From: a virus
Taxonomy: Duplodnaviria; Caudoviricetes
IMG/VR virus record: IMGVR_UViG_3300017963_000308
Location: 1 to 58,421 of that record
DNA length: 58,421 nucleotides
Direction: 5' to 3' (one strand)
Below the pieces are notes generated by a model, which worked only from the letters and a program-made list of their open reading frames with translations, was not told where the DNA came from and searched no databases. Below are positions 1 through 29,128 of this stretch, in pieces. The position numbers were made by a program, and so were the translations under genes. The first letter of the stretch is position 1, and the number at the start of each line of letters is the position of its first letter.

Positions 1-3
1 AGA

Positions 4-95
4 TTCTCCTATAGCTAACAATTTGAATAGATTAATTGCTTAACAATCTTCACAAGGCAGGATTATATCTTGTGAAGACTATAAGGAATCAATCC
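4..95 (-). repeat. Family-B intergenic hairpin repeat plus start-associated sequence, copy 1
   Basis: 92 bp identical to 686-777; core inverted repeat TCTTCACAAG-N12-CTTGTGAAGA; ends in TAGCTATAGGAGAA on the minus strand. Confidence 0.95.
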
Positions 96-301
96 AGGAA
101 ACTCGATACAATAATGCTATTGTCTTCTCTATCCCAAAGATAGGTATAATTAAAACGGAATCTCCACGGAGAATATTCCATGGTTTGTCTAATTGCCGCG
201 ATTCTGTTTGGCGGCGAATTATTAAACCCAAACTCCATCGATCTTATTACATCAGCCCACATGGGACATGGGTATAATAATCCCTTATGATAAAAAGCCA
301 T
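89..301 (-). CDS. Small hypothetical protein (array cargo)
   Basis: 70-aa ORF, RBS AGGAG; stop codon lies in the family-B repeat arm. Confidence 0.8.
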   Translation of the reverse strand: MAFYHKGLLYPCPMWADVIRSMEFGFNNSPPNRIAAIRQTMEYSPWRFRFNYTYLWDREDNSIIVSSFLD

Positions 302-332
302 TTTATTTTCTCCTATAACTAACCTGCTTTTA

Positions 333-389
333 ATTAATCGCTCAATAAGATAGACAATGGATCCATTGTCTACCCTATGAAAGATTAAT
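333..389 (-). repeat. Family-A 57-bp hairpin repeat, copy 1
   Basis: ATTAATCGCTCAATAAGA-TAGACAATGGATCCATTGTCTA-CCCTATGAAAGATTAAT; perfect 22-bp palindrome at 351-372. Confidence 0.97.
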
Positions 390-678
390 CGCGCTTAACG
401 GTTTCCCATGCCAGCGTAAACTTCTCGCGCCATGTTTCTGGCACCACTTCAAGATTAAACCTCACGTTTTGACGGTGCTTATTTTTCAATCCTTGCACCA
501 CTGCCACAATAGCCGCATCGAGGCTGAATCCGCTAGCCATTAGCATGCCAACTACCGCGACCACCACGCCGCGCTGATAATCAGCATTCGCTCCGGAATC
601 TGTTTCCAATAATTCGAGAGTATCATGAAAAATATTTTTGTTTTTAATACTCTGATACTTCTTATTTTTCAATTCCAT
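385..678 (-). CDS. Small hypothetical protein (array cargo)
   Basis: 97 aa, AGGAG RBS; stop TAA inside the repeat arm. Confidence 0.85.
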   Translation of the reverse strand: MELKNKKYQSIKNKNIFHDTLELLETDSGANADYQRGVVVAVVGMLMASGFSLDAAIVAVVQGLKNKHRQNVRFNLEVVPETWREKFTLAWETVKRD

Positions 679-685
679 TTTATTT

Positions 686-777
686 TTCTCCTATAGCTAA
701 CAATTTGAATAGATTAATTGCTTAACAATCTTCACAAGGCAGGATTATATCTTGTGAAGACTATAAGGAATCAATCC
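686..777 (-). repeat. Family-B hairpin repeat plus start-associated sequence, copy 2
   Basis: Identical to 4-95. Confidence 0.95.
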
Positions 778-993
778 TTAATAAGTGACTACAATGTTAA
801 GTTCTTTGCCCAAAATAATCATATTCGATATATTTTGAGCTAAGAAAACATGGGGTGATTCATTGCCCACAGAAAACAAACCATTGTCTAATTCTGCAAG
901 AATCCCATAATCGATTCTACTTGTTCTATGCAAGGTAACATTTTCACCCGCATGCTTTTTTAATTCGTTAATAATAATAATATTTTGGTTCAT
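778..993 (-). CDS. Small hypothetical protein (71 aa, MNQNIII...)
   Basis: Start moved to ATG 993 with GGAG RBS, coupled to the stop of 995-1252. Confidence 0.75.
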   Translation of the reverse strand: MNQNIIIINELKKHAGENVTLHRTSRIDYGILAELDNGLFSVGNESPHVFLAQNISNMIILGKELNIVVTY

Positions 994-994
994 T

Positions 995-1252
995 TTATGC
1001 TCCATATAAAGCCAAGATCTTAGCGCATGCGATTCTTTTATCTGTGTCTTCTCTTGTATCCCAATTCCTAAAAGCGGTATAATATCCATTGTCATAGAAA
1101 ACAGAGCAAACCTTGATTCCGTCAATAGTTGCGCAAACATCACCGTAAATAATATAGTCTTCATTGTTTATAGTGAACGAATCCTTACCAGATAAGACAA
1201 CACTCATGGTGTCATCAGCCCAGTTTTCCGGATTGATAGTAACAGTTTGCAT
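995..1252 (-). CDS. Small hypothetical protein (array cargo)
   Basis: 85 aa, acidic, CTATAGGAGAA RBS. Confidence 0.85.
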   Translation of the reverse strand: MQTVTINPENWADDTMSVVLSGKDSFTINNEDYIIYGDVCATIDGIKVCSVFYDNGYYTAFRNWDTREDTDKRIACAKILALYGA

Positions 1253-1283
1253 GGTATTCTCCTATAGTCTAATGGGTTAAAAT

Positions 1284-1330
1284 CTTAATAAATTACTCAA
1301 GATTTTATGGTTTCTTGAGTAATCTATAAA
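1284..1330 (-). repeat. Family-C hairpin (single divergent copy)
   Basis: ATTACTCAAGA-N10-TCTTGAGTAAT with the same TTATAG / TTATTAAG basal motif as families A and B. Confidence 0.8.
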
Positions 1331-1333
1331 ATG

Positions 1334-1627
1334 TCAACCGTAATACCATCCAACTACAACGAAATCATTGTCATCTGTAAAATGCACCAGAATTCCAGAA
1401 AAGAAGGAATCTGACGCATAACCATGCCAGTAGTCGGGAAACATGCCGCTAGGGAATCTCGTAAACTCTCCCAAAGAATAGATATTACCTTTGTACCTAA
1501 AGAATGACATCTCCTCTATTTCTTCGGGAGTCGCCCAGTCAAATTTTTCCTTTTCTTCTTCAGTCAACTCGAAACCGCAGACCACTTCACGCTCATGGTA
1601 ATTGCTAGTGATTTTTAACTCACTCAT
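1334..1627 (-). CDS. Acidic, aromatic-rich phage hypothetical protein
   Basis: 97 aa; FFRYKG..Y and WHGYASDSFFSGILV resemble a family I recall from phage early regions. Confidence 0.85.
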   Translation of the reverse strand: MSELKITSNYHEREVVCGFELTEEEKEKFDWATPEEIEEMSFFRYKGNIYSLGEFTRFPSGMFPDYWHGYASDSFFSGILVHFTDDNDFVVVGWYYG

Positions 1628-1660
1628 TTTAGATTCTCCTATAGCTAATAACTTTTTAAC

Positions 1661-1717
1661 ATTAATCGCTCAATAAGATAGACAATGGATCCATTGTCTA
1701 CCCTATGAAAGATTAAT
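1661..1717 (-). repeat. Family-A hairpin repeat, copy 2
   Basis: Identical to copy 1; 1622-1717 is identical to 2521-2616 (96 bp). Confidence 0.97.
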
Positions 1718-1994
1718 CAGAGCAATAGCCTACTATGCCACGATAATATTCCCATGGGTCAATCTTGTTTTTAACGACATGCCAGCCATGCTCCAAATCG
1801 CGAATATCGCGGCGAGTCAATCGCAAAACATAAACATTGTTTTCGAGGTTGTAGTCTTCAATATAGTGTTCATGTCGTACCATCGCTCCTATGTCCTGAT
1901 ATTTTGCAAGGTGATTCTCTATTTCTTTTTGCATCTTTTTGGACGTGGGTTTAACAGTATATCCACAAAAAACCGGTTCAATAATTACTTGCAT
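1713..1994 (-). CDS. Small hypothetical protein (93 aa, MQVIIEP...)
   Basis: True start at ATG 1994 after TAGCTATAGGAGAA; the longer track ORF reads through a repeat. Confidence 0.85.
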   Translation of the reverse strand: MQVIIEPVFCGYTVKPTSKKMQKEIENHLAKYQDIGAMVRHEHYIEDYNLENNVYVLRLTRRDIRDLEHGWHVVKNKIDPWEYYRGIVGYCSD

Positions 1995-2025
1995 TTTATT
2001 TTCTCCTATAGCTAATCTGCTTTTA

Positions 2026-2082
2026 ATTAATCGCTCAATAAGATAGACAATGGATCCATTGTCTACCCTATGAAAGATTAAT
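2026..2082 (-). repeat. Family-A hairpin repeat, copy 3
   Basis: Identical 57-mer. Confidence 0.97.
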
Positions 2083-2085
2083 TTT

Positions 2086-2526
2086 TTATTCCCAAAGATC
2101 AGAATCCTCAAACGGCCAAAATCCATAGTCTGCCCCATCTCCAGGATGACTCCCGAAGTAACAATCTTCTGGGGCAATTTCATTTAGCATATCGAAGCAC
2201 TCATCTAGTAGCCACGTAGAATCCTCTTCAGAAACATCATGGTAGTACCAAAAATCCCCATGCTCTTCCGGCGACATATCGCGATACAATTTGGTGCCGA
2301 ATACTTGGGTCAACCAATTTTGAGCAAATGGACGAGTCTGCACCACCAGATAATTATGTTCTGTTTGCATCTTAGCGACTCGTTCCGCGTCTTCTCCATC
2401 GATATAACCCAATTCCGCGGCCGCGGTCAGCGCGTCCAAAAAGGATGGTAATAAGTCTTCAGTTTTCATAGTGGCAGTGGATAAACTCGAGCAAACATCA
2501 CTTTGGGGTAATTGCTTAAAACTCAT
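2086..2526 (-). CDS. Acidic phage hypothetical protein
   Basis: 146 aa, D/E-rich; C-terminal YFGSHPGDGADYGFW motif recalled from phage early proteins. Confidence 0.9.
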   Translation of the reverse strand: MSFKQLPQSDVCSSLSTATMKTEDLLPSFLDALTAAAELGYIDGEDAERVAKMQTEHNYLVVQTRPFAQNWLTQVFGTKLYRDMSPEEHGDFWYYHDVSEEDSTWLLDECFDMLNEIAPEDCYFGSHPGDGADYGFWPFEDSDLWE

Positions 2527-2559
2527 TTTAGATTCTCCTATAGCTAATAACTTTTTAAC

Positions 2560-2616
2560 ATTAATCGCTCAATAAGATAGACAATGGATCCATTGTCTAC
2601 CCTATGAAAGATTAAT
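2560..2616 (-). repeat. Family-A hairpin repeat, copy 4
   Basis: Identical 57-mer. Confidence 0.97.
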
Positions 2617-2719
2617 TACCATGCCACCCAAAAATTGCCCATTTGGTTTGTTTCCAGAGGCAATATAGAGAAACAAGAAGCCCGATAGTACCTAATAATT
2701 CTGTATAATTGATATCCAC
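2612..2719 (-). CDS. 35-aa putative membrane peptide (not in ORF track)
   Basis: GGAG RBS, GTG start, MDINYTELLGTIGLLVSLYCLWKQTKWAIFGWHGN; stop in the repeat arm like other cargo. Confidence 0.6.
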   Translation of the reverse strand: MDINYTELLGTIGLLVSLYCLWKQTKWAIFGWHGN

Positions 2720-2722
2720 TTT

Positions 2723-2938
2723 TTATACTCCTATGCTTTGCACCAGATTAATTCTTTTCCTTAAGCTGTTTGGAATTGATAACAAACTATGGTCAATAGT
2801 TAACAAATCGTTGTCATAATCGAATACCAACGCGTTATTAACCTTTTTAAGCAACGTTTCCGCACCTTTTTGTAATCCCTTAATATCATAAGCGATTGGA
2901 CCAAAGATTTCGTTATTCTCAGCATATATCTTAATCAT
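2723..2938 (-). CDS. Small hypothetical protein (array cargo)
   Basis: 71 aa, AAGGA RBS directly after a repeat. Confidence 0.8.
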   Translation of the reverse strand: MIKIYAENNEIFGPIAYDIKGLQKGAETLLKKVNNALVFDYDNDLLTIDHSLLSIPNSLRKRINLVQSIGV

Positions 2939-2958
2939 GGTTTAATTCCTTTTGCTTA

Positions 2959-3015
2959 ATTAATCGCTCAATAAGATAGACAATGGATCCATTGTCTACC
3001 CTATGAAAAATTAAT
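2959..3015 (-). repeat. Family-A hairpin repeat, copy 5
   Basis: 57-mer with one substitution (AAAAATTAAT end). Confidence 0.97.
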
Positions 3016-3233
3016 TAGCGTCGGGTAATATCTGTGACCCCAACATTAATCGAATTCGTGTTATAATCCCAACTTAAAATACTGTTTTGACTGAATTCGA
3101 ATCCAAACGTATCAGAATTGATATACAAATTTTCGTTTTCTAGTACCTTAAGTTTGCCCACGCAATAACCAAATGGGTGATAAATTATAACAGTATACAA
3201 TTCTAAAAAAGCTTGTAGGGTTTCTTGGTTCAT
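3015..3233 (-). CDS. Small hypothetical protein (array cargo)
   Basis: 72 aa, TAGCTATAGGAGA RBS. Confidence 0.8.
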   Translation of the reverse strand: MNQETLQAFLELYTVIIYHPFGYCVGKLKVLENENLYINSDTFGFEFSQNSILSWDYNTNSINVGVTDITRR

Positions 3234-3266
3234 TTTATAATCTCCTATAGCTAATAACTTTTTAAC

Positions 3267-3323
3267 ATTAATCGCTCAATAAGATAGACAATGGATCCAT
3301 TGTCTACCCTATGAAAAATTAAT
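3267..3323 (-). repeat. Family-A hairpin repeat, copy 6
   Basis: Same variant as copy 5. Confidence 0.97.
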
Positions 3324-3339
3324 TACTTGTGCTTCTTTA

Positions 3340-3453
3340 CTACATCCCTAAAAGCGAGAAAACAATAGCAGCATAAGAATCAGCCCAGTTAATTCCAATA
3401 ACCAAAATACCCAATAGGGCAGCAGAAATGCCAAATTTGATTAAGCTTAACAT
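3340..3453 (-). CDS. 37-aa putative membrane peptide, first gene of the array (not in ORF track)
   Basis: ATAGGAGAAA RBS, MLSLIKFGISAALLGILVIGINWADSYAAIVFSLLGM. Confidence 0.65.
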   Translation of the reverse strand: MLSLIKFGISAALLGILVIGINWADSYAAIVFSLLGM

Positions 3454-3488
3454 TTTAGTTTCTCCTATGGTTAATAATTGCGTTTTAT

Positions 3489-3614
3489 TTTTTATGCTCT
3501 ATTGCGCGCGATTACTTGCTTGGGTTTAGGCAAGCTTATATATTAATCCGATTAAGGTATATATTTTTGATGTTTAATCAGCCCATTAATATCGCGCGCA
3601 ACAGAGCACAAAAA
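3489..3614 (-). repeat. 24-bp inverted repeat in the array leader
   Basis: Arms 3489-3512 and 3591-3614; both mismatches become G-U pairs on the minus strand. Confidence 0.8.
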
Positions 3615-4027
3615 TTGTGTCTGTTGTGTTTAGTATTTTATTCCCCAGGGGTCAAACGATTGTTTTCAATCGTGGCTGTTTCACCAGCCGTGAAAAACCT
3701 TCCGTCTAGGATTACTAACAATTCCCAAAAATTCGACTAAAATTTTGGCGGTACCGATTGCCGCGTTCGTGTGAGCAAGGTTACCTATGAGATTTGGGGA
3801 CAAGTCACCCGACCGTTAATGCATTGCCGATTGTCATCACACGTTACAAAAAATCAGCGTAAAATCCAGAAGATTGTTACAAAGGCGGAAGCACAATTGC
3901 CTGGAGTTTTCTGCGAATTAAGGGCAGCTATTGCTGTTTGGATTTCACCCGGCCGGTCAGCCCCGCTTTGTCAGTTTGCCCTACTTGCAAACTCATATTC
4001 AATTCGATGTTACGGTGTTACGTGTAT

Positions 4028-4056
4028 AGAGTATCATATAGTCAAGATGTAGTCAA
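4028..4056 (-). promoter_or_regulatory. Putative leftward sigma70-type promoter for the array
   Basis: TTGACT-17 bp-TACTCT with extended -10 TG on the minus strand. Confidence 0.5.
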
Positions 4057-4477
4057 TACCTTTGTACGAATTAGATAAAATCTCGCTAAAAATAGGCCAA
4101 AATAGGCTATTTTGGAAAGTATTCCGTACAATTATGCAAGTCCAAAATTGCGATTTGACTATTTCGAGTGTTAAGATTGACCTAAAATTGTACCGTAAAT
4201 TGGCCCAAATTAACCCAAAAGCCACCCAAATTACCAAAATTCCGCCCAAAATACGACTAAAAAATAGTCAATACTGGGATAAAATCCAAAAAATCGGTAC
4301 AAATTTAGCCGAATTCACAATAAATTGTGAAATATTAAGCTTGTTTTACTACGCATAATGTATTTTTAGCGAAGTAAAATTTTTAGTCTAGGCTAAATTA
4401 CCAATATATGGGATCGTTGCCAGTAGAATGTCAGTATAAATAAGACATCCCTATGTAGGGTGCCGTACAATTACCCA

Positions 4478-4774
4478 TAGGACGCACTACAATGCGATAT
4501 AAGCGGATTATATGGCAGATAGGGACCATATGTCCTATGGCATATGTCAGCCCGTATAAGCTATTGTGTGGCATATAATGAAGGAACACAGAAAAGCGAG
4601 AAGAAAAGCAGCAGAAATAGAATGAAGATAGATTAAGTGTAAGATAACACGTGGCATAATCTGCCAACATAATCCGGCGGATTGCATCACATTGCAATGA
4701 TGATAACAGACTGGTATTAATCGGTACTTAGGACGCGCTAGGATGTAATCTAAGCGGATTGTATGATAGATAGG
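4478..4774 (+). repeat. Degenerate 46-bp direct repeat pair (4478-4523, 4729-4774)
   Basis: 37/46 identical by manual alignment, core TAAGCGGATT. Confidence 0.7.
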
Positions 4775-4978
4775 TATGATTACATCTGTTTGTTATAATC
4801 TGGCCTACAATGAAGCAGGTAAGATAAAGCGTATAATTCGGTAGACTGTAGGCCAGAAGAAAAGCGGATTAATTAGTATGCTCCATTGTAGGGTACCTAT
4901 GCTATGGATCCATATGATTAACAGTGTGAGGCAGTGTAGTGGATAGAATAGAAATAGAATGAAGATAGATTAAGTGTA
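4613..4978 (+). repeat. Perfect 29-bp direct repeat pair (4613-4641, 4950-4978)
   Basis: AGAAATAGAATGAAGATAGATTAAGTGTA twice. Confidence 0.9.
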
Positions 4979-5303
4979 GTGTAGTGTAGTGCAACATAGT
5001 CAGTATATAGTCAGGTTATAATCGAGTAGTGTATAAATGTATAAGTGAGAATAAAAAGAGTAGTCGAAAAAAAAAGGGGGGGGATCGAAAAAATCGGGCG
5101 GTACTTTGCGTACAGGCTCAACCCCCGCTCTCGTTTCCGCGCCACGCGCATGCGGAGCCGTCCGATCTCCCTGGGGGTCACAAGGAAAAGCAAAGCCCCC
5201 TGCCCTGGGTCGTGGGGGTGAAACGAAGTAGGGGCGTGGGGTCAGCAGCAGTAAGCAGCAGTGGTTTAATGTGGGTGTTTGTGTATATATGTTTGGGTTA
5301 GGG

Positions 5304-5332
5304 TTGACGCTTGTAAAGGTTTATGGTATAGT
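5304..5332 (+). promoter_or_regulatory. Rightward sigma70-type promoter
   Basis: TTGACG-17 bp-TATAGT with extended TG; followed by GC hairpins at 5339-5359 and 5372-5398. Confidence 0.7.
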
Positions 5333-5527
5333 GTTTAAGCGGGTGTTGAGTACGCCTGCGGATAGGGAGCAGGGGGGCGGCTTGGGAAACCGCCCCCCGA
5401 GAAATTACAGGGAGAATTGATTGGTATGATTTGTGGGTAGGGGCATATATTGATACGAAAATGCGAAAGATATATATTTGCCCGTTGCCCACTTTGGTTA
5501 TAGAGATTCGGCTTTAGGGGAAGAGAA

Positions 5528-5752
5528 ATGAGGAAACAACCAGATCCGCAGCTAGTGGAATTTCTTAAAGAGTTTGTTGAAAGGACCGGGGGAAGTTCTT
5601 TCACGCTAATTACTCCCCGCGTTTGTGATCGGTGTGGGGATGACAGTAGGGAAGCTTTTCCCTCATTGTGGGGATTTGAGGGTGACTGGGAAGATCTGTG
5701 CAATGATTGTTTTGAAAAGTTAATGCTGATTGAGGAGTCTGAAGGTGGATGA
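5528..5752 (+). CDS. Small Zn-finger protein
   Basis: CDRC...CNDC motifs. Confidence 0.75.
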   Translation: MRKQPDPQLVEFLKEFVERTGGSSFTLITPRVCDRCGDDSREAFPSLWGFEGDWEDLCNDCFEKLMLIEESEGG

Positions 5753-6230
5753 TTCTGTAAGGCAGGCTATTTATAAATATGAGGCCGAATACTGGCGCGC
5801 TAACGGCAAGATAGCCCGGTTGCGGTATAACCGGGGCTGGTATTGGCTAATACATCCCAATGGGCAGGAAGAAGATCGGGCTTGGCGGTATGGTGAGGTT
5901 AGAACTAGAACAGAAACATTAAAAAATCGTCCTTCATTTGTACTTGGGCGTGGCGTGGATGACAAGGAAGCCCGGGAGATTTACCACAAGCTGCTTGATG
6001 GTACTTATTGGGAAGGAAGGGAACGGGGAGATACGGAGAGGGCTTTTATCAGGGATCTTGAGCAAGTATTGAATCGAATGCCTTCGCAATTATGGCTATT
6101 TGCTACTGGCAACTTGCATGTGATGCGGAAGGATGAAAAGGGGCAAAGGGCTATTACCCAAGAGGGCGGCATGGATCCTGAATACATAGTTGATTCCCTT
6201 ATTGCCGATTGTGATGGGGGTGATTGGTGA
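5745..6230 (+). CDS. Hypothetical protein
   Basis: GAGGAG RBS, GTG start, coupled to neighbours. Confidence 0.75.
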   Translation: MDDSVRQAIYKYEAEYWRANGKIARLRYNRGWYWLIHPNGQEEDRAWRYGEVRTRTETLKNRPSFVLGRGVDDKEAREIYHKLLDGTYWEGRERGDTERAFIRDLEQVLNRMPSQLWLFATGNLHVMRKDEKGQRAITQEGGMDPEYIVDSLIADCDGGDW

Positions 6231-6577
6231 TGACTGATCTGAGAATTATCGATCAGATGCGTTGGGTTATGGCCGAAACTAAGGCTGACGATGTTGATTT
6301 CAAGATGGGTATCGATGGGGTGATAGTTGTAGGGGTTGGTTGGTGTTTTGGTAGTAAAATAGCCAGCTTCCAACGGGCATATACTTTAGAGGCGATTTTG
6401 CGTAATGGGACAGATGATTTTTGGGGGCATTTCGTGAATTTAGCCAAGGAACAACGGAAAATTCTGGTAAATCGGTATTGCTTGAAATGTGGTGAGGAAT
6501 TTAGCGAGATGGGATGGTGCCATTATTGCGACAATCACAGTACCAAACAAAATAAGATGGAAGAGGGGATAGAATGA
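6227..6577 (+). CDS. Hypothetical protein with C-terminal Zn ribbon
   Basis: CLKC...CHYC; GTGA overlap. Confidence 0.75.
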   Translation: MMTDLRIIDQMRWVMAETKADDVDFKMGIDGVIVVGVGWCFGSKIASFQRAYTLEAILRNGTDDFWGHFVNLAKEQRKILVNRYCLKCGEEFSEMGWCHYCDNHSTKQNKMEEGIE

Positions 6578-6816
6578 GCTACGATTTTGATACTTTGGAG
6601 TATAAAGTTTCTGAGATTTCTAAGCATTTTGATAAACTGGAAAAATTGTTGAAGCGCAAAAATACCTACATCAAGGCGTTAAAAGCCAATGCCAGATACT
6701 TCGACGCGATACTGGCAGAGGTAAATCATGGCTACATAGCTGAATTATGTCGGGATGCCTTGAAAGAATTGGCGATGTTGAAACAAGAGTATGAAAAGGA
6801 TGATAATAATGTTTGA
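6574..6816 (+). CDS. Hypothetical coiled-coil protein
   Basis: ATGA overlap, GAGGGG RBS. Confidence 0.75.
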   Translation: MSYDFDTLEYKVSEISKHFDKLEKLLKRKNTYIKALKANARYFDAILAEVNHGYIAELCRDALKELAMLKQEYEKDDNNV

Positions 6817-7408
6817 TCACTATCAGTATCAACAACAGTTTGTAGAAAATCATAAGGAGGGGAATCCCCCCATAAATGACGCGATTGAGTATGGAGTAGC
6901 GATTGAGCCATGTCGTCCGGAAGAGGGCGAGTTCTATTGGAAGATCATTGGGCTTCACCATCTAACACCCGAAGAGAATGTTGGCAAACATAACCTGTTT
7001 ATGGATGTATTGGACGCGGCCGGGGGTCGAGTTGAGCCATTCTTTGAGGTTGATTGGACCTGGGAAGGGCGGCGGCCAGATGAGGCGGCTCCGCCTGTAA
7101 GATTGGACAAACCTCAAAATGAGCCGGGGGGCAATTTGTCTGTCTGGATTAATCAAACTGTTTCGGCTTGGGTTACAGACGACAATGAATGTAGTGATAC
7201 TATTGGCAATGTCCATACTCGCCATGCCGATGAATCTGGGGGGAATACCGTGGGCCACCATAGCTTTTATGTGGTGTGGATGCTGGCAGAAGCGGGTGAA
7301 GAGCCTGATCCCCCATTGCCGCCACTCCCCGAACCATCGGATGATTGTGAAAAGGTGCTGCTCCAGATCAAGGAACTGATTGATGGTTATTTCGAAAACC
7401 AAACTTGA
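6809..7408 (+). CDS. His-rich conserved domain protein, possibly cell-envelope associated
   Basis: YWKIIGLHHLTPEEN..HN, DKP.NEPG.N and H.DE..GNT..HHSFYVVW motifs recalled from Chloroflexota proteins; Pro-rich linker. Confidence 0.6.
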   Translation: MFDHYQYQQQFVENHKEGNPPINDAIEYGVAIEPCRPEEGEFYWKIIGLHHLTPEENVGKHNLFMDVLDAAGGRVEPFFEVDWTWEGRRPDEAAPPVRLDKPQNEPGGNLSVWINQTVSAWVTDDNECSDTIGNVHTRHADESGGNTVGHHSFYVVWMLAEAGEEPDPPLPPLPEPSDDCEKVLLQIKELIDGYFENQT

Positions 7409-7446
7409 CACTCGTTAGGGTTATGATATAATGAGAACGTGTGTTC
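7405..7446 (+). promoter_or_regulatory. Sigma70-type promoter with LexA-type SOS box
   Basis: TTGACA-16 bp-TATAAT (extended TG); GAAC-GTGT-GTTC at 7435-7446 over the predicted start site. Confidence 0.75.
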
Positions 7447-7468
7447 GGTTTTTGCCGAAGGGAGAACC

Positions 7469-7804
7469 ATGGACAAAAAGAAGTTTGTTCCAACTCCAAT
7501 GGAAAAGGGGAGAGCCAGGGTAAACGATTGGGAAGAGCAGTTGTTTTTATATATGTGTGAACAAGAGGACGCTTCCCAGTCTGAAATGGTGAGAAACGCT
7601 ATCCGGCATTATGCCTTAACTTTAGGCTATTTGCCGGATTTGCTTAATGAAAACAGGCGGCTTAGGGAAAATCTTGAAGACGTGCATTGTCGGATAATAG
7701 ATTTGAAGAAAGCGTCGATTAAAGTTGGGCTGTACCAACAATCAAACAGGCTTGCGGAATTAGAGAATATTGTACTGGGTTATTTGAAATATGAGGATGG
7801 GTGA
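7469..7804 (+). CDS. Putative ribbon-helix-helix regulator with coiled coil
   Basis: SQSEMVRNAI helix pattern; GGGAG RBS. Confidence 0.55.
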   Translation: MDKKKFVPTPMEKGRARVNDWEEQLFLYMCEQEDASQSEMVRNAIRHYALTLGYLPDLLNENRRLRENLEDVHCRIIDLKKASIKVGLYQQSNRLAELENIVLGYLKYEDG

Positions 7805-7841
7805 GGATGGAAGGGTGCCCGATAATTAAGGAGAATTTGAG

Positions 7842-8333
7842 ATGATAACCACGAAAGAAGTAGAAAAGTTGGTTACCGAAAAGTGGCGAACCTTCGATAC
7901 CCAAACTCCGCTTTTTTATGAAATTGTTGATTTTGCTCTTGAGATGTACAACCGGGGTCACGAAGATAATCCCCATACCAGGGGCGCGCTTGACTTAACT
8001 TCCCCGGCCAAAAAGGTTGTTTGGCAGCAATCCCAACATCCCATGAATAATCTGGAAGAGGCTGCTTTCTTGGCAATCGCCAAGGTTTTTGGTGATTTGC
8101 TTATGGAAAAGCAGGCGGAGTTTACCCGGCGAACTGCTAACCGCTCCGCAGATGAAATGAGTCTTACCGAAGTTGCCGAACAGCAGGAAAAGGTGATCGA
8201 AACCCTGATGGACTATATTGAAGAGGCTTATCAATTATTGAAAACAATTAAAATCATGGATGACCAATGGCATACATCGGAAAAAGTTTGGATGAGTCGG
8301 GCCGAGTCGTTGCTTTTTGGCGGAGATGAATAG
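7842..8333 (+). CDS. Hypothetical protein
   Basis: AAGGAG RBS, 163 aa. Confidence 0.8.
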   Translation: MITTKEVEKLVTEKWRTFDTQTPLFYEIVDFALEMYNRGHEDNPHTRGALDLTSPAKKVVWQQSQHPMNNLEEAAFLAIAKVFGDLLMEKQAEFTRRTANRSADEMSLTEVAEQQEKVIETLMDYIEEAYQLLKTIKIMDDQWHTSEKVWMSRAESLLFGGDE

Positions 8334-8345
8334 GGGCGATTGGTG

Positions 8346-9326
8346 ATGAAAACAAATTATTATAGTGTAATAATTAGTTCGATCTTGTTTTTTGTTTCGC
8401 TGGCCTTGCTTTTCTTTACAACCGGGTGCGCGGTACCAGAGGGCGATTTTTCTTTCTCAGAGGCACCCACGGCTACGGTAGTGCCTACTCCGATGCCATC
8501 ACGTGAGATAAGCATGCCAGATAGCCAATTGGCGAATCTGTTAAAAGTTGTTGGGTTAGTAGTGGTGGGGTTGATTGCGATGGGGCTAATAGCGGCGGGG
8601 CTGATCGCCGGAGCAAAGTGGATTGCCAAATGGATTGATGGATTATTCGAGAAGCCAGATCTACCGCCAGGAATGGAGCCTAACGCAAAGAAAGTAGAGA
8701 GAGCCACGAAAAGCATTGATCGGGAGTTAAAGCGGGTAGATGCTAATTTAAGAGATATCGAGCGGGAATCGGCGGTATTGTTGGATGGCATTTACGCTTT
8801 ACTTAGCTTCGCGGCCGGGTTGCGGGCATTGTATGACCTGTATGAGCGGGCACTTGAAATAATTTCCGCAGATCCAATTGATGCTCTCGAATTGGCAAAG
8901 ATTCGCGGTCAGTTAAAGCCAAGGGATCCCATCGCGGCGGGCTATTTGGATAGTCCTCACTTGTGGACAAACACATATCGCATTCAAATAGCGGAAAATA
9001 TGGCTGAATTGCTTGGGCAAGCGGTTGAGTGGTCTAGGCAGTATGTGGAACATGCCGCCAAGTTGCAAAGAGTTTTGCACGGCTACAAAACAAGCGCGGA
9101 AAGCCTTCGGTTTAGCAAGAATTACGGAGCCAACGCCAAGCCTGTTTTGGCGATAGGGCAAAAGATAAGCGATGCGTTGACCGCAGTTATGGTGATCCGG
9201 GGATTATTCCCCATTGAGCATCGAAGCGAGCGGCGGTTAGCTGATTTGTTTAGCCGCGAACCGGCTAGACTCGCTCCGGTTTCTAAGGCAACCAGGGAAA
9301 ATATGGAAGTGATATTGGGAGAATAA
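8346..9326 (+). CDS. Membrane/lipoprotein with coiled coil
   Basis: Signal peptide ending in TTGC, PTATVVPTP linker, second TM segment, helical C-terminus. Confidence 0.75.
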   Translation: MKTNYYSVIISSILFFVSLALLFFTTGCAVPEGDFSFSEAPTATVVPTPMPSREISMPDSQLANLLKVVGLVVVGLIAMGLIAAGLIAGAKWIAKWIDGLFEKPDLPPGMEPNAKKVERATKSIDRELKRVDANLRDIERESAVLLDGIYALLSFAAGLRALYDLYERALEIISADPIDALELAKIRGQLKPRDPIAAGYLDSPHLWTNTYRIQIAENMAELLGQAVEWSRQYVEHAAKLQRVLHGYKTSAESLRFSKNYGANAKPVLAIGQKISDALTAVMVIRGLFPIEHRSERRLADLFSREPARLAPVSKATRENMEVILGE

Positions 9327-9327
9327 G

Positions 9328-9546
9328 ATGAAATTTGGGCTAAATTTTTTTGTGATATCTCTGATTTTTATCGTGCTTGCGGTCTTCTTCGAAATTTTAG
9401 CCGCGAAGAGCAATGATGAAAAAATGGAAGCGGCTGAATTGTGGTGTTTCCAGCATGGCTACCCATATGTCAAGGAGACTCAAGATCAGTATTTTTGCTT
9501 TACTCCGGTCGATGTAACGCCGGTACCTGGAGAGATAATACCATGA
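9328..9546 (+). CDS. Small membrane protein
   Basis: N-terminal TM segment and a two-Cys C-terminal motif. Confidence 0.75.
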   Translation: MKFGLNFFVISLIFIVLAVFFEILAAKSNDEKMEAAELWCFQHGYPYVKETQDQYFCFTPVDVTPVPGEIIP

Positions 9547-9770
9547 CCTATGATCAAACATTTAAGTGGATGTCGGTTGGTTTTTGGGCGTTTATCGTGC
9601 TTTTGGCCCTGATTGGTGTTTTTATCCAGTTCAATTATTCCTTTCAGCATTGGCCGCAACTTCAGTCGGCGGAAGAGCAATGCCAGAGGATGAATGAAGC
9701 ATATCATGCTAAGTGGGTCGATGGAGAACTTTATTGTTTGGTGCCTGTAGTATCTCACAAAGGAGAATGA
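9543..9770 (+). CDS. Small membrane protein
   Basis: ATGA overlap; TM plus two Cys, same architecture as the upstream gene. Confidence 0.7.
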   Translation: MTYDQTFKWMSVGFWAFIVLLALIGVFIQFNYSFQHWPQLQSAEEQCQRMNEAYHAKWVDGELYCLVPVVSHKGE

Positions 9771-10147
9771 CTATGTTGATCAATGGTAAAGAGTATGAGG
9801 TTAAGTTTTATCGGGAATTTGTTTACCAGGGGAGAGAAAATAGAAATGGTGATCTCGAATCAACACCCCAAACCGAATGCCAGATATTTACGGATCCCGA
9901 AGGAGCGATTGGTTATGGGGTGACTGTTAAAAATCCCGATGATCCGATTGATGACCGGGATTACGGGCGGCGAGTCGCCTTTAAGCGCGCTCTTGAACAT
10001 GCCGAGTTTGACAGACAAGAGCGCACTCAAGCTTGGGCGTGGTATAACCGGAATTACGAAACTCTTAAGCAGCGTATTAAGCGGCGGGCGTTGATGAGAA
10101 ATTTGCGATCAAGCATATTTTCCACGTATTTCCAGGTGCCCCGATAA
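9767..10147 (+). CDS. Small phage protein
   Basis: G.T..NP.D...GRR.A..RAL motif common in small phage proteins. Confidence 0.75.
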   Translation: MTMLINGKEYEVKFYREFVYQGRENRNGDLESTPQTECQIFTDPEGAIGYGVTVKNPDDPIDDRDYGRRVAFKRALEHAEFDRQERTQAWAWYNRNYETLKQRIKRRALMRNLRSSIFSTYFQVPR

Positions 10148-10186
10148 AATTGTGAAATTAGATAGCAGAACATTACGCGTTGACAG

Positions 10187-11143
10187 ATGGCTAAAGATGC
10201 AAGGGTGGTTTGCCCACATTGTAACCGAATAATTATTTTGGGGATTGAGGTTAGAAAGCCCCGGAGTGGGTTTTTTCGGCAAAAAGGTTCGCCGTCCAAG
10301 CCTAAAATGGGAATCATGCAGATGACCAAGAAAAACATTTTTTCCGATGCGGCGGCCGCGCCACCAATGACGGCCAGAACGCCTACTTATGGAATGTCAT
10401 CGACCGGGCCGACTACCGAAGAGGTTAACGAGAATATACGACAGTTGCCGACTAATTTTAGCGCGTATAGAAGTTCCCTGGATTTGGAACCTACAGTAGC
10501 GAATCAGGTTGGACTTCCCCTGGTTGAAGCGATTGTTTATGGCGGATTTTTCTTTATTGGGGGAGTTGTCGTGGCATGGTTATTCGATATTTTTACGCCA
10601 AGTTACAAAATCTATGTTCTTGAAAAAGTTTCTTTTGGGTTTGTGGTCGGATTTGTGGCGGCCTTTTTTCGGTATATTGGTAACGGGGAGTTCTACAGGG
10701 ATGTTATTCAAAAGGTAGAAGAGGTTACCAAGCGTGATATCAATCAAGATGGGTACGTGGGGCCGCCCCCTCAACCAACCGTTAATGTAACCATTCCGCA
10801 ACCGGGGCCAGGGGTTAGCAGGCAATTGGCCGACTTGCCGGGTGACCTGGATTCGCTTAGGGAATTTAGTCGATATGTTGTCATGGGTGAAATCACCTTT
10901 TCTGAGCAGGGCGCACTTGCTTCTGGCTACGGCCAAAAGAATTTCATGAAACTGCGAAAGATTTTTTTGGATAGGGGTTGGGCCAGATGGAAGAATGAAG
11001 AAGCGCACACAGAGGGAGTCCAATTGCTAAAGGCTGGTAGTTTGATCATCAGGGAGTTATCAAGGTTAAACGATGAGCAAGTAGAATCGGATCCGCCCGA
11101 AGAGGATACTCAATATGGGCGATTTGCTCATATCGATTATTAG
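10187..11143 (+). CDS. Two-TM membrane protein with probable C-terminal winged helix
   Basis: Two hydrophobic segments, DINQDGYVG loop; start uncertain. Confidence 0.7.
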   Translation: MAKDARVVCPHCNRIIILGIEVRKPRSGFFRQKGSPSKPKMGIMQMTKKNIFSDAAAAPPMTARTPTYGMSSTGPTTEEVNENIRQLPTNFSAYRSSLDLEPTVANQVGLPLVEAIVYGGFFFIGGVVVAWLFDIFTPSYKIYVLEKVSFGFVVGFVAAFFRYIGNGEFYRDVIQKVEEVTKRDINQDGYVGPPPQPTVNVTIPQPGPGVSRQLADLPGDLDSLREFSRYVVMGEITFSEQGALASGYGQKNFMKLRKIFLDRGWARWKNEEAHTEGVQLLKAGSLIIRELSRLNDEQVESDPPEEDTQYGRFAHIDY

Positions 11144-11591
11144 GGCTTGTAATGGGGGAAACTTGTTATCAACAATTAAAACTTTCTTTCGTTTTATGTC
11201 TGGCGAAAACCCATATGACGAATTAGTTAAATGGGAATCTGAGCGAAGATTCTGGGATGTAGCTAAATATCAAATTCCCGGATTGATTCCCCAACGTAAG
11301 ATCCGCCCTTATATTGCGGACTTCTCTGTTTGGGCTGACAAGATGCCCCTTGGCCTAATCATTGAGATTCAGGGAAAAAAATACCACGGCGGCGATATGT
11401 CAGAAGAGATTGCCGAAAATTGGTATAAGATTGTAGATGACTGGGAGAGGGCCAGGGAGATCTTGATTAAGGCCGGTTGGGTAGTGGTGTTCTTTCCGGC
11501 CGCGGATTGCTTTTCGCGGCCGCAGTATATGGTTAATCAGGTTAAACAAATGATTAAATCTATGGAAAAGAAAAGGAGAATTCCAAAATGA
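11115..11591 (+). CDS. DUF559/Vsr-like PD-(D/E)xK endonuclease
   Basis: Q..I.PYIADF...LIIEIQG..YH...D..R......GW.V..F. Confidence 0.8.
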   Translation: MGDLLISIIRACNGGNLLSTIKTFFRFMSGENPYDELVKWESERRFWDVAKYQIPGLIPQRKIRPYIADFSVWADKMPLGLIIEIQGKKYHGGDMSEEIAENWYKIVDDWERAREILIKAGWVVVFFPAADCFSRPQYMVNQVKQMIKSMEKKRRIPK

Positions 11592-12706
11592 AATTAATTA
11601 TCAATACTGGCGACTTGAAAGCGGGGCTTGACGTAGTTGGGGCAGCCGTGGCCGGTGCCACTACTATTCCTGTTTTGTCCGGGGTATTGCTGGAAGTTTC
11701 CGAAAATGTATTGAGACTTTCGGCAAGTGATCTGGAAAAAGACATTACTACGCTGCTAAAATGCCAGGGTGAGGATGGGGCGATAGTTTTACCCTATAAG
11801 CTACTTAGTGGTCTGATAGGTGGGCTTAATGGGGCGATTGAAATGAATCTCAATCCATCTAATCTTACCATGAAATGGGAAAGCGGGGAACAGAATGGGT
11901 CTATCAAGGGGCTAGATCCTGGGTTATTTCCGGATGTGACATATGGAGATAGTGACTATGACATCACTTTTGAGGGAGAACAATTAGCCGAAGCGATTGC
12001 TCGGGTCGTTGTATCGAGTGGCGACGATTCTGGACGAGAGTGGCTTGCTTCAGTCAATATGCGATTGAATGATGAGACTGAGGGGAAATTGTTTTTGCAG
12101 GGGGCTAATGGGTTTAAGGCTTCAATTCAGACTATGGCGGCTCCGGGTATGTCGTCGTGTGAAGCAGTAATCCCTGTTCAAAGCATTAGTCGAATTACTC
12201 AACTTGCCTCAAAAAGCAAAAATGTTGGGATCAGGTTTGTCGGCAAAGATGTCATTTTTGTTTTCGATCAGGTTGTTTGGTTGCGTAGTTCAACCCTGGA
12301 AGCAAAGTACCCCGATTTAACTGTTTTTATCCCGGAATCGAGTCTCACATCGATTAGGGTTGATAAGGTAGAATTGCTCCGCAAGCTGAATACGGCTAGA
12401 TTGTTTTGCTCTGAAACCAGTATGGTTGAGGTAAAGGTCGGGGAAGATACGCTATTAATTCAAACGCGATCTGCGGAATTGGGCGACTATTCCGGCGACG
12501 TGCAATGTTCCCTTAAGGGCGATCCAATTTTCTTTGGAGCAAATATCAACTATTTTATTCAGGGGGTAGCCGTTATCCCGGGTGATGAGGTCCTTGTCGA
12601 AGCGAAAGACGCCGATAGCATTATTGCTATGAGGCCGGGAGAAGATGTTGGGTTTATTTTTTGCATGACTCCAATGCATGTTGTGGGGAGTAACCAAAAT
12701 GACTGA
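11588..12706 (+). CDS. dnaN: DNA polymerase III beta subunit (sliding clamp)
   Basis: 372 aa; TIPVLSGVLL, LSASDLE, FPD, YPD and C-terminal MTPM match the beta clamp. Confidence 0.93.
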   Translation: MKLIINTGDLKAGLDVVGAAVAGATTIPVLSGVLLEVSENVLRLSASDLEKDITTLLKCQGEDGAIVLPYKLLSGLIGGLNGAIEMNLNPSNLTMKWESGEQNGSIKGLDPGLFPDVTYGDSDYDITFEGEQLAEAIARVVVSSGDDSGREWLASVNMRLNDETEGKLFLQGANGFKASIQTMAAPGMSSCEAVIPVQSISRITQLASKSKNVGIRFVGKDVIFVFDQVVWLRSSTLEAKYPDLTVFIPESSLTSIRVDKVELLRKLNTARLFCSETSMVEVKVGEDTLLIQTRSAELGDYSGDVQCSLKGDPIFFGANINYFIQGVAVIPGDEVLVEAKDADSIIAMRPGEDVGFIFCMTPMHVVGSNQND

Positions 12707-13118
12707 GCCAGAACATCACGAAATTTGGAAAATGGTAGAAGATGGCTATGAGGGGATATTAAACGAGCTACATCAATTTCGATTTGACATTCCCATTGAA
12801 TGGGTGTCCAGGGATGTACCGATAACGGATGGAGTATCGCTAAATATAGAGGACATTGCGGATCCGGTGAAATTTGCTTCGATTATATTGTCGATTACAA
12901 GCATCCTGCACCATCAGCAAGTATTGATTTTCAGTTTTGACCTTGCTCTTGAGCATAGGCCAGATCCAGTATCCGATGACCCTCTTCGGAGAAAAAGAGT
13001 ATTGAATATAGGGCTTGGGTGTATCGGGTCTTGGAATAAAATAACCGTGACATCGTATCTGGGGATGAACAGAAGCCGAATGTCACTAGACGATCCGGGA
13101 GAGTTAGGCGATGAATGA
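12699..13118 (+). CDS. Hypothetical protein
   Basis: GGGGAG RBS, overlaps dnaN stop. Confidence 0.7.
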   Translation: MTEPEHHEIWKMVEDGYEGILNELHQFRFDIPIEWVSRDVPITDGVSLNIEDIADPVKFASIILSITSILHHQQVLIFSFDLALEHRPDPVSDDPLRRKRVLNIGLGCIGSWNKITVTSYLGMNRSRMSLDDPGELGDE

Positions 13119-13323
13119 CGATGAGTTGAGGCGTAGATTGAAAGAGAATGATGCCAAACTAAAACGGGAGAGGGCTATGTCTGGAGTACAATTTGCGGTT
13201 ATCTTTTTTATCCTGATGCTTATTGCCCAAATTGGTATGGAGTCTCTGACTCCCGTGGGTTGTGTTTTCGGGATTGGGTTTTTTTGGTCTTTGGGCTATG
13301 CTTTGATAGAGTTTTTTACATAA
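13111..13323 (+). CDS. Small two-TM membrane protein
   Basis: Two hydrophobic segments. Confidence 0.7.
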   Translation: MNDDELRRRLKENDAKLKRERAMSGVQFAVIFFILMLIAQIGMESLTPVGCVFGIGFFWSLGYALIEFFT

Positions 13324-13356
13324 GCAATTTGGGATAGTCAATAGTCATCTTGCCGC

Positions 13357-13381
13357 AAGCCCCCATTTGGGGGCTTTTTTT
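13357..13381 (+). terminator. Rho-independent terminator
   Basis: AAGCCCCC-ATTT-GGGGGCTT followed by a T run. Confidence 0.9.
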
Positions 13382-13401
13382 ATTACACTATAATATCAGG
13401 C

Positions 13402-13430
13402 TTGATTTAGCTACATAAGTATGATACTAT
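13402..13430 (+). promoter_or_regulatory. Promoter for the packaging genes
   Basis: TTGATT-17 bp-TACTAT, extended TG; ATG 13437 sits 7 nt downstream. Confidence 0.6.
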
Positions 13431-13436
13431 AGCTAT

Positions 13437-14000
13437 ATGGATAACAGGCTTAATGGTAAACGACTCCCGGGTAGTATAGATGAAGTAGACCCTAGCGCGC
13501 TCAATCTACTTGTCGATCATCAATTTGGTTTTGTGGCCGGGTTGATGGAATCTCAGGCCAGTGAAGTAGAAGAGTTGATGCGGTCAGAGGTTGGGGCAAA
13601 TGCGGTTAAGGCAGCATTGGCGGAATATATGGCTACGGCCAGGATCCGGTTAATGTTGTTGTCGACTCAGGCTATGACTACCCTGGATGAAGTGATGCAA
13701 GATGAAAAAGAAGACAGCAAAACGGCTACGGCTCGCGTTCGGGCCGCGGAAGCCATTTTAGACAGAGCGGGATTCCCCAAAGCCTTGCAGCAATTTCGGG
13801 TGAATGCCGATTTGCAAGAAAGCGATAGGATTTTGCCGTCAATGGAGGATGTGTTAAAAAATGTTCCGCCTGAAGACGTTCCAAGTGTTATGGCAAAATT
13901 TCGAGAAGCTTCCGTGATGATCGATGAGCTAAGGGCCGGGGGAATGATTGTAGATGGTGAAAAAATGGACTCTGACAGCGAAAAAGGATCGCCCCAGTAA
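13437..14000 (+). CDS. terS: Probable terminase small subunit
   Basis: Helical, ARVRAAEAILDRAG motif, upstream of TerL. Confidence 0.65.
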   Translation: MDNRLNGKRLPGSIDEVDPSALNLLVDHQFGFVAGLMESQASEVEELMRSEVGANAVKAALAEYMATARIRLMLLSTQAMTTLDEVMQDEKEDSKTATARVRAAEAILDRAGFPKALQQFRVNADLQESDRILPSMEDVLKNVPPEDVPSVMAKFREASVMIDELRAGGMIVDGEKMDSDSEKGSPQ

Positions 14001-19150: not shown

Positions 19151-19427
19151 CATTCTTGATATCTATGACGAATTACCGGAAGACGAAAAGGAGATTATAA
19201 CGGAACATGTTTTATTTCTTATTAGGGAAAACAAGGAATCCAAAACGGCTATAAAAAGTATTCCAGAGGGTTTTAGGAAGTATTTTAGCCTTGAATTTGG
19301 GTTGGGGATTGGTAATAAAGAGGGTCAATTTATCGGCCTTGCTTGCAAATCTTGTAATGCTTTTCACCCAAGACATAGCGAAGATTGTCCAACACAGGAG
19401 TTGATGAATGCAATACCCCAAAGTTAG
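19143..19427 (+). CDS. Hypothetical protein with C-terminal Cys/His motif
   Basis: CKSC...H..DCP. Confidence 0.7.
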   Translation: MVSILDIYDELPEDEKEIITEHVLFLIRENKESKTAIKSIPEGFRKYFSLEFGLGIGNKEGQFIGLACKSCNAFHPRHSEDCPTQELMNAIPQS

Positions 19428-20783: not shown

Positions 20784-21054
20784 ATCTTACTTTCTTAGTC
20801 GGGGCTTGCTTAACTTGGCTATAAAGACAACATTTTCTTTTGTCAATCTCATTATTGCTATCGAAGTTTGCATAGCAGTTAAACAACATGGGCTAATCGG
20901 GATCTTAGGGATGATAGATTGGGTTTTGGTTATGCTTGTGCTTGGTACTGCGGCCGCGTGGTTTCACGTAAGGCAAGTTGAATTAGATAAGGCGCATCAA
21001 TTAATGGGGAGTCCATTGGGGCATGCCAAAAATACCAGAAATGCTAGAAAATGA
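20773..21054 (+). CDS. Small membrane protein
   Basis: Two hydrophobic segments. Confidence 0.65.
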   Translation: MVGKSYFLSRGLLNLAIKTTFSFVNLIIAIEVCIAVKQHGLIGILGMIDWVLVMLVLGTAAAWFHVRQVELDKAHQLMGSPLGHAKNTRNARK

Positions 21055-22781: not shown

Positions 22782-22786
22782 AAGAC

Positions 22787-29119: not shown

Positions 29120-29128
29120 GAGTAAACA

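Follow-up and report, generated by a model that had tools for sequence, protein, structure and literature searches.

What is the role of a hairpin that stands in nine copies, always in the same orientation, between the small genes of one arm of a phage genome? The question is raised by the virus record IMGVR_UViG_3300017963_000308 (Duplodnaviria; Caudoviricetes), a siphovirus-like contig whose entire 58,421 nucleotides (nt) were analysed here and are referred to as the window. Its leftward arm (positions 1-3453, minus strand) holds small open reading frames (ORFs), and nine hairpins of 57-65 nt, also on the minus strand, occupy 9 of the 11 gene junctions. We report that this element is real and is selected as a fold of the sense strand, that it lies at a fixed place between the stop codon of one gene and the ribosome-binding box of the next, and that related hairpins occur in other phages; its geometry suggests a signal for the intercistronic processing of mRNA.

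Three sequence types make up the nine copies: six of type A (TCATAG..TTATTGAG), two of type B (TTATAG..TTGTTAAG) and one of type C (TTATAG..TTATTAAG). The pattern T[CT]ATAG.{20,40}TT[AG]TT[AG]AG finds exactly these nine places on both strands of the 58421 nt. An earlier note on this DNA had quoted one string for each type and had placed the family at 31-1717; all three strings are present on the minus strand and so is the family, but four of the nine copies lie beyond 1717 and carry it to 3323. With the arm genes numbered g1 to g11 from right to left, the copies are as follows.

3267-3323, minus strand: hairpin A1, type A with the T variant of the outer arm, between g1 (37 aa) and g2; 78.1 bits on the minus strand versus 43.1 on the plus strand
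2959-3015, minus strand: hairpin A2, type A, T variant, its first base overlapped by the g2 stop codon; followed by a divergent leader without the CTATAGGAGA box
2560-2616, minus strand: hairpin A3, type A, outer-arm bases 3-5 forming the g4 stop codon TAA
2026-2082, minus strand: hairpin A4, type A, at the g5/g6 junction
1661-1717, minus strand: hairpin A5, type A, at the g6/g7 junction, with the stop codon TAA within the outer arm
1275-1339, minus strand: hairpin C, type C, at the g7/g8 junction, with the stop codon TGA within the outer arm GGTTGAC
713-775, minus strand: hairpin B1, type B, at the g9/g10 junction
333-389, minus strand: hairpin A6, type A, at the g10/g11 junction, with the stop codon TAA within the outer arm
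31-93, minus strand: hairpin B2, type B, after g11, with the stop codon TGA within the outer arm and a leader truncated by the contig end

Minimum free energy folds of the RNA give one architecture for all three types. From the base upwards, the outer helix (6-7 bp) ends at a 1x1 mismatch, above which come a second helix (4-6 bp), one U left unpaired on the 3' side and then the upper stem (13-14 bp), closed by a loop of 4-12 nt; this amounts to 24-26 bp of duplex with the bulged U and, usually, the 1x1 mismatch, which lies 4 bp below the bulge in A and B and 6 bp below it in C. On the sense strand the folding energies are -21.5 to -25.6 kcal/mol (z -6.6 to -7.8), with none of 200 shuffles folding as well, and on the antisense strand -14.3 to -17.1 (z -3.8 to -6.2). 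The note had described just such a common fold with an unpaired base at one place, as well as outer arms common to A and B and a preponderance of G-U among the non-Watson-Crick positions, and in these respects it was right: the arms are ATTAATY/GATTAAT in A and ATTGATT/AATTAAT in B, with C having a helix of its own (GGTTGA/TTAACC), and the four distinct window sequences hold 13 G.U cells against one A.C and one other. Its statement that the upper stems differ completely was mistaken, the stems of A, B and C aligning with MAFFT free of gaps outside the loop and 12 of 26 pairs, including a CAA/TTG core, never varying.

Is this fold maintained by selection, and on which strand? In a structure-blind MAFFT alignment of 16 distinct sequences, with 25 pairs and hence 400 cells, standard pairing is found in 96.0% of the cells (78.4 +/- 1.3 in shuffles), and changes on both sides of a pair occur at 14 of the 25 pairs and in 72 cells (19.0 +/- 3.8 in shuffles); none of 500 shuffles reaches any of the five measures taken on this alignment. 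When the partner is moved by 1-3 columns, just 7-12 cells with both-side changes are left. Two further alignments, one of 18 rows of which two are misaligned and one of 23 distinct rows fitted to the model, agree as to covariation. One pair is G.U in 15 of the 16 rows of the structure-blind alignment, and the bulged U is present in all 16 (16 of 18 in the 18-row alignment). G.U cells number 62 against 10 A.C cells, six of the ten falling in two misaligned rows. For each of the 18 sequences the sense strand gives the better fold, and its model scores are 63-80 bits against 29-48 for the antisense strand, the models favouring it by 15-35 bits. Folding of both strands, an Infernal model and a search for covariation in homologues had been proposed with the idea of a structure-specific site on the sense strand, and this idea stands: the fold is favoured on that strand and relatives show compensatory changes. 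Compensatory change taken together with the strand bias means, therefore, that the element is selected as a sense-strand fold, which points to mRNA, and less likely to the non-template DNA strand, as the molecule under selection.

The position of the hairpin relative to the genes is equally regular. The upstream stop codon lies within or touches the 5' outer arm (ATTRAY, GGTTGAC) in six of the nine copies and 2-17 nt upstream in the others, while a box YTATAGGAGA follows 16-24 nt downstream of the hairpin and an ATG 5-8 nt further on; wherever flanks are visible, a Shine-Dalgarno sequence and an ATG stand downstream on the same strand. Nine of the ten TAGGAGA occurrences in the genome are arm leaders on the minus strand. 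The repeat unit within the window is hairpin plus leader, identity running from the 5' base of the hairpin to the start codon or just past it; copies are 100% identical over 57-96 nt, two of them across 96 nt. The two junctions that lack a hairpin belong to tightly coupled gene pairs, g3/g4 with a 3-nt gap and g8/g9 with TAAAATG. Consensus scans detected neither sigma-70-like promoters at the elements (16 promoter-like sites in 1-6000 against a shuffle mean of 19.2) nor U-tract terminators (7 terminator-like sites called, none of them an element). In the arm of the relative G001 (locus L203) a separate small local hairpin, such as TTATCC..GGATAA or CTATC..GATAG, contains the Shine-Dalgarno sequence, and window leaders show such a hairpin weakly (TTAG..CTAA). 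The genes and leaders of the arm are these.

3340-3453, minus strand: g1, 37 aa
3015-3233, minus strand: g2
2723-2938, minus strand: g3
2612-2719, minus strand: g4
2086-2526, minus strand: g5
1713-1994, minus strand: g6
1334-1627, minus strand: g7
995-1252, minus strand: g8
778-993, minus strand: g9
385-678, minus strand: g10
89-301, minus strand: g11
1-3468, minus strand: TAGGAGA in leaders, starting at 3467, 3247, 2540, 2008, 1641, 1264, 693, 315 and 11

How far does the element extend beyond this phage? Homologues of the window's TerL that are 50-77% identical exist, and their alignment led to G001, a complete IMG/VR genome of 83,420 nt with direct terminal repeats, whose TerL is 58% identical. 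The model R1 had been built solely from the four distinct window sequences, and the search of G001 with it was an unbiased test. It returned five strong matches (34.7-62.3 bits), two weaker full-length matches (25.9 and 26.8 bits), one partial match (21.5 bits) and one marginal match (19.4 bits), all on the minus strand between small minus-strand ORFs of a syntenic arm at 69.9-74.3 kb. Every one of the five strong matches retains the bulged U, and a six-pair stretch above the conserved UAGG varies by compensatory substitutions.

A pattern drawn from the window and G001 sequences was then used to find further copies. A contig set, G006, from a metagenome-assembled genome labelled Ca. Altiarchaeales (WJJK01000222.1, WJJK01000009.1) has four on a 2.7-kb contig and one on a 6.1-kb contig, three of its copies being near-identical; it is a closer relative of the window phage, since g1, g3, g5 and genes of G001 have homologues on its contigs. 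Single copies occur on a 4-kb contig of a 'Thermococci' metagenome-assembled genome (G010, CAZFRW010000070.1) and in two IMG/VR records, G008 and G009. The last is a prophage of Fusobacterium ulcerans, in which the copy lies in an early operon divergent from a helix-turn-helix (HTH)/ImmA pair, between ORFs of 81 and 105 aa and upstream of ERF and exonuclease genes. A second pattern gave 43 stretches, 40 of them in new records, and the model R2, run on these 40, found seven hairpins in five and none in 35. Of the five further loci, four either encode proteins with Fusobacterium varium or F. ulcerans in their names or are almost identical to a locus that does, and the fifth has a Veillonella-named terminase. 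G008, G009 and G010 have no protein in common with the window phage or G001, except for a pentapeptide-repeat protein of G009 and G001.

The census thus stands at nine copies in the window, at least seven in G001, five in G006, one each in G008, G009 and G010 and one or two in each of the five further loci, with at least 23 distinct sequences in at least 11 contigs, and in every independent context seen all copies are oriented with the genes. The search patterns required the core, whose conservation in the members found with them (Fusobacterium/Veillonella, G006 and G010 among them) is therefore by construction; they did not require complementary stems, the placement of stop codon and Shine-Dalgarno sequence, or the orientation. 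The exact A stem has no match in IMG/VR and none in the JGI metagenomes, a scan with the 15-mer TTAGCTATAGGAGAA gave more than 120 single matches attributable to chance, a base-plus-Shine-Dalgarno pattern gave 10 matches of which none is a hairpin, and BLAST of the hairpins against named phages and plasmids gave chance matches. Metagenome contigs that encode a TerL relative are short fragments lacking the arm, and they give no match to R2.

What, then, might these hairpins do? We suggest, with confidence that is about even, that they belong to the T7 RNase III type of intercistronic signal, serving mRNA processing or stability, and are cut by a double-strand RNase. The leftward arm would be transcribed by the host as one long early message, in which each hairpin begins at or beside the stop codon of one gene and stops 16-24 nt short of the next ribosome-binding box. 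The imperfect duplex of about 25 bp, with its conserved bulged U beside a near-invariant G.U, would be the site of a double-strand-specific endoribonuclease, host RNase III being the prime candidate. Cutting at the hairpins would yield gene-sized pieces of message, the upstream piece retaining a protective 3' hairpin and the downstream piece beginning near a strong Shine-Dalgarno sequence.

We infer transcription as a single message because the promoter and terminator scan gave no match at the elements; cleavage and the identity of the enzyme are presumed as well. A host-transcribed message cut by an RNase is proposed because there is a duplex of about 25 bp, no promoter and no U-tract, and because the proteins scanned in the window phage and G001 include no recognisable phage RNA polymerase. 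Judged by geometry, RNase III-type processing is the best-fitting mechanism. A duplex of at least 20 bp, about two helical turns, with a bulge is present, and it lies between co-oriented ORFs at 9 of 11 junctions.

Several points weigh against this. Transcription as one message and RNA ends at the hairpins are predictions from sequence. The core, YUYA-UAG / UUR-U-URAG with its G.U in 15 of 16 rows, is strongly conserved, and known bacterial RNase III substrates need far less sequence conservation than that; it is also common to Fusobacterium, Veillonella and sediment phages, and such a core, conserved across phyla, would suit a mobile element, or a protein that binds one specific sequence, about as well, if not better. 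Against the early regions of T7 (400-8200) and SPO1 (1-14000, the terminal-redundancy, host-takeover block), the model R2 with filters off gave at best 15.8 bits (E 0.29), and there is thus no homology to proven sites. Several G001 junctions have other or degenerate hairpins, the 1x1 mismatch is not fixed in position and is missing in several members, and the members found by pattern (Fusobacterium/Veillonella, G006 and G010) could represent a family that arose by convergence.

The strong core leads directly to the first alternative, that the hairpin is the site of a sequence-specific RNA-binding protein, of phage or host, other than RNase III: a dedicated endoribonuclease, say, or a regulator of translation or stability that switches the early genes together, with the bulged U and the G.U as identity elements. 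Bulged bases in a fixed context are classical features of protein recognition, as in the MS2 and PP7 operators. Here both the G.U and the bulged U (16 of 16 and 16 of 18 rows) are kept while the rest of the stem covaries freely, and the element lies 5-24 nt ahead of the Shine-Dalgarno sequence. The core conservation is, however, in part a product of the pattern searches. The arm proteins yielded no RNA-binding or nuclease family, and the sediment phages and Fusobacterium prophages have just the pentapeptide-repeat protein in common, leaving no common phage-encoded partner visible. We consider such a protein unlikely.

A second alternative places the element at the level of DNA, as a mobile palindrome resembling miniature inverted-repeat transposable elements (MITEs) or repetitive extragenic palindromes (REPs), or as a recombination site in folded single-stranded DNA (ssDNA) like attC or an IS200/IS605 end with an extrahelical T, the RNA fold being a by-product. 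It draws its appeal from the cassette-like layout of the arm. Homologues of g1, g3 and g5 occur in the same order in the window, G001 and G006, and the intervening ORFs are unrelated and differ in number. The g1-g3 interval has one hairpin-flanked ORF in the window and none in G006; the g3-g5 interval has three ORFs in G001 and a single one in each of the window and G006, none related to another. Beyond g5, G006 continues with a homologue of G001's seventh arm gene; G001 itself has one extra ORF ahead of that gene, and the window has a gene unrelated to it at that place. Most differences in gene content among the three are bounded by hairpins. Copies are identical or nearly so within a genome (the six of type A; three in G006) and occur in otherwise unrelated phages, the 5' arm has stop codons in two frames, and ssDNA would also tolerate G.T pairs and a bulged T. 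Assemblies from metagenomes are interrupted at the repeats, beyond which their contigs carry other sequence, and a missing part of the genome could explain this too; the window stretch itself is present as contigs in two DNA metagenomes.

A freely inserting element should, however, show both orientations, and every independent context shows one. No integrase, HUH transposase or recombinase was found beside the arms, the only transposon-like gene being a distant TnpB-like ORF in G001; no target-site duplication was seen, though none was specifically looked for; and the attC core is absent. Because of the uniform sense orientation, the missing attC core and the lack of a recombinase near the arms, a dedicated recombination system of attC or IS200/605 type is not supported, and we rate a DNA-level function of the element as improbable. 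The resemblance to a cassette array is real only insofar as gene gain and loss are bounded by hairpins, and homologous recombination between repeats accounts for the shuffling with no need of a special enzyme. The close identity of copies within a genome would, as a secondary effect, make them junctions for such recombination, and cassettes of one or two genes may be gained, lost or swapped between relatives at the hairpins, as are promoter-early stem-loop (PeSL) cassettes.

It is quite improbable, we think, that the core (UAG opposite UUR, the fixed G.U and one bulged U) is the address of a dedicated factor and not of general RNase III, for instance a sequence-specific endoribonuclease or an ssDNA recombinase that moves units of hairpin, leader and small gene. 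Were the recombinase to exist, the low-GC arms would resemble integrons, as arrays of cassettes that carry early phage genes, probably directed against the host, and that marine sediment phages have in common with gut Fusobacterium prophages.

That the hairpins are terminators or attenuators, grading expression along the arm and read through by means of an antitermination factor, strikes us as very doubtful. They are stable (-21 to -32 kcal/mol) and placed after stop codons, and the PeSL stem-loops of T4-type phages are described as effective terminators (PMC2839356). No copy here, however, has a U-tract downstream or was called by the terminator scan, a conserved bulge and core are not features of intrinsic terminators, and with no promoter to restart transcription nine serial terminators would silence the distal genes. 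Two further candidates were rejected: promoters of a phage polymerase (CTATAGGAGA resembles the start of the T7 promoter, and N4-type promoters are hairpins), since the fold is favoured on the non-template strand and the complete relative G001 has no unexplained polymerase-sized ORF, and operator palindromes, since each of the three sequences would require a repressor of its own and the strand bias would lack an explanation.

The surroundings of the arm may be described briefly. The proteins of the window include a large terminase, a portal, a major head protein, a tape measure and a three-domain bacterial DnaN clamp; proteins identical to the window's are also carried by a 79.6-kb contig, and the window is incomplete, starting within a repeat and ending within a tail-fibre-like ORF. 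The arm has a GC content of 0.37 (0.42-0.52 in the rest of the window) and holds 11 small ORFs of 35-146 aa, in none of which a Pfam family was found, and a twelfth truncated at the contig end. Among GenBank phages no DNA relative of the window was matched, and among named phages the best TerL match is at most 28% identical; a search of IMG/VR with the major capsid protein found no relative, and a homologue search with a 328-aa neighbour protein returned only itself.

Upstream of the arm, at 3797-3807 (minus strand), lies the 11-mer TGACTTGTCCC, which occurs twice upstream of the G001 arm (L203 11845-11855 and 11881-11891, minus strand) and is a candidate early promoter or operator. The interval 3460-5720, between divergent arms, is mostly non-coding and may be an origin or regulatory region; the GC skew flips sign there, and it contains runs of short TTTGG/ATTTTGG-like repeats at about 4060-4360, C- and T-runs near 5060-5090 and a 29-nt exact direct repeat (4613-4641 and 4950-4978). 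A direct repeat of 152 nt, 78% identical (56821-56972 and 58270-58421), lies within the open-ended, tail-fibre-like last ORF. Between the portal and capsid genes some 15 kb (19408-34963) encode glycosyltransferases, S-adenosylmethionine (SAM) methyltransferases including a TylF-like O-methyltransferase, sulfotransferases, an aminotransferase and DUF5662, a sugar-modification module unusually large for a siphovirus and partly kept in G001.

G001 has three genes with no window homologue, a TnpB-like ORF (HTH_OrfB_IS605; 29336-30721, minus strand) in the structural region, a ParM/ALP actin-like gene (64240-65247) adjoining the arm and a gene for a TGT and DUF6884 (DpdA-like) protein (2084-3400). 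On a G006 contig (C383; L337 922-976, minus strand) a sub-threshold match to the type-P1 twister ribozyme was noted (30.4 bits against a gathering threshold of 67.2, E 0.003). The closest TerL (77%) is labelled Altiarchaeales. Because the phage encodes a bacterial DnaN clamp, the archaeal labels of this lineage's contigs are probably binning errors; an archaeal host, or a bulge-helix-bulge motif, was rejected on account of that three-domain clamp and of bulges unlike those of that motif.

With no Rfam match and strong covariation, the hairpin is an uncatalogued structured RNA motif that joins a small set of phage early-message signals. Its core recurs across phages of different bacterial phyla, and prophages of cultivable Fusobacterium make it approachable by experiment. 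The question it raises is what reads a bulged-U/G.U hairpin, and whether this controls a burst of small host-takeover genes. The hairpins mark the seams of small early-gene exchange, which helps in annotating uncultured phages and in mining them for accessory genes, likely anti-defence ones.

How does the element compare with known systems? Rfam 15, searched with window 1-6000, the G001 arm and the G006, G009 and G010 loci, gave chance-level sub-threshold matches only (miRNA precursors; DUF2815 RNA at 22.9 bits against a gathering threshold of 41.2), and the literature yielded papers on PeSL and on the SAS/ESAS repeats and no description of this motif, which word searches cannot exclude. The attC sites of integrons are imperfect palindromes of variable sequence and conserved fold, with two or three extrahelical bases on the bottom strand and an RYYYAAC/GTTRRRY core, and are recombined by IntI, whose gene adjoins the array. 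Like them, the hairpins have an extrahelical base, keep their fold despite variable sequence and directly follow each promoterless ORF of a co-oriented array. The analogy to attC that the earlier note had drawn is nevertheless not supported. The single bulged T is on the sense (top) strand, the core is absent, the conserved outer columns reading (A/T)TTRAY ... RNTTAA(T/A), and no integrase or IntI-like gene occurs among the proteins scanned in the window and G001, a set that does not comprise every ORF.

Cluster K mycobacteriophages have the 13-bp SAS GGGATAGGAGCCC at the start codon and the ESAS, with 17-bp inverted repeats, just upstream (PMC3203893). The two systems have in common a Shine-Dalgarno box at the start codon (here YTATAGGAGA), upstream imperfect inverted repeats round a short spacer, one orientation and confinement to non-structural genes; they differ in that the 17-bp ESAS arms directly abut the SAS, and in box, spacing, hosts and sequences. 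On TM4, a phage with SAS/ESAS repeats, the model R2 gives 15-18 bits, with a maximum of 18.1.

The PeSL cassettes of T4-type phages combine a strong sigma-70-like promoter with a terminator stem-loop (PMC2839356, PMC4122927). They resemble the present hairpins as short repeated intergenic modules among small non-essential early ORFs, at indel or replacement junctions between relatives, and the position at indel junctions is found here too. The sequence scan detects neither a sigma-70-like promoter nor an intrinsic-terminator stem-loop with its U-tract, and the stem here is longer and has a conserved bulge.

The nearest parallels lie in the early messages of other phages. In the T7 early region and in SP82/SPO1 early RNAs, RNase cuts are described as leaving upstream pieces with 3' hairpins and downstream pieces that start near a Shine-Dalgarno sequence. 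Panganiban and Whiteley in 1983 and Hue et al. in 1995 reportedly described sites of Bs-RNase III in SP82/SPO1 early RNA, with a downstream polypurine 5' stabiliser. These sites and ours are alike in being repeated, sequence-conserved intercistronic hairpins among small host-takeover genes with a strong Shine-Dalgarno sequence close behind; they are unlike in that R2 finds no match in the SPO1 terminal-redundancy block.

For T7, Dunn and Studier are said to have listed in 1983 the early RNase III sites R0.3, R0.5, R1, R1.1 and R1.3. We folded four T7 early intercistronic regions, which we take to hold such sites (the record used does not annotate them), and obtained long, imperfectly paired hairpins whose lower stem contains stop codons (TGATAG) on its 5' side; the sites have sequence in common, and about 18-40 nt separate a hairpin from the next start codon. 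There is no similarity in sequence or by the model, T7 has a larger asymmetric internal loop where we find a single bulged U, cleavage is proven there and predicted here, and the core described here is common to phages of different bacterial phyla. In both systems long imperfect hairpins stand between early genes, sequence and fold recur at several sites per genome, the lower stem takes in stop codons of the upstream gene on its 5' side, and a start codon follows at a distance of a few tens of nucleotides. The hairpins are in this sense a new sequence family of a familiar kind, the punctuation signals of phage early messages.

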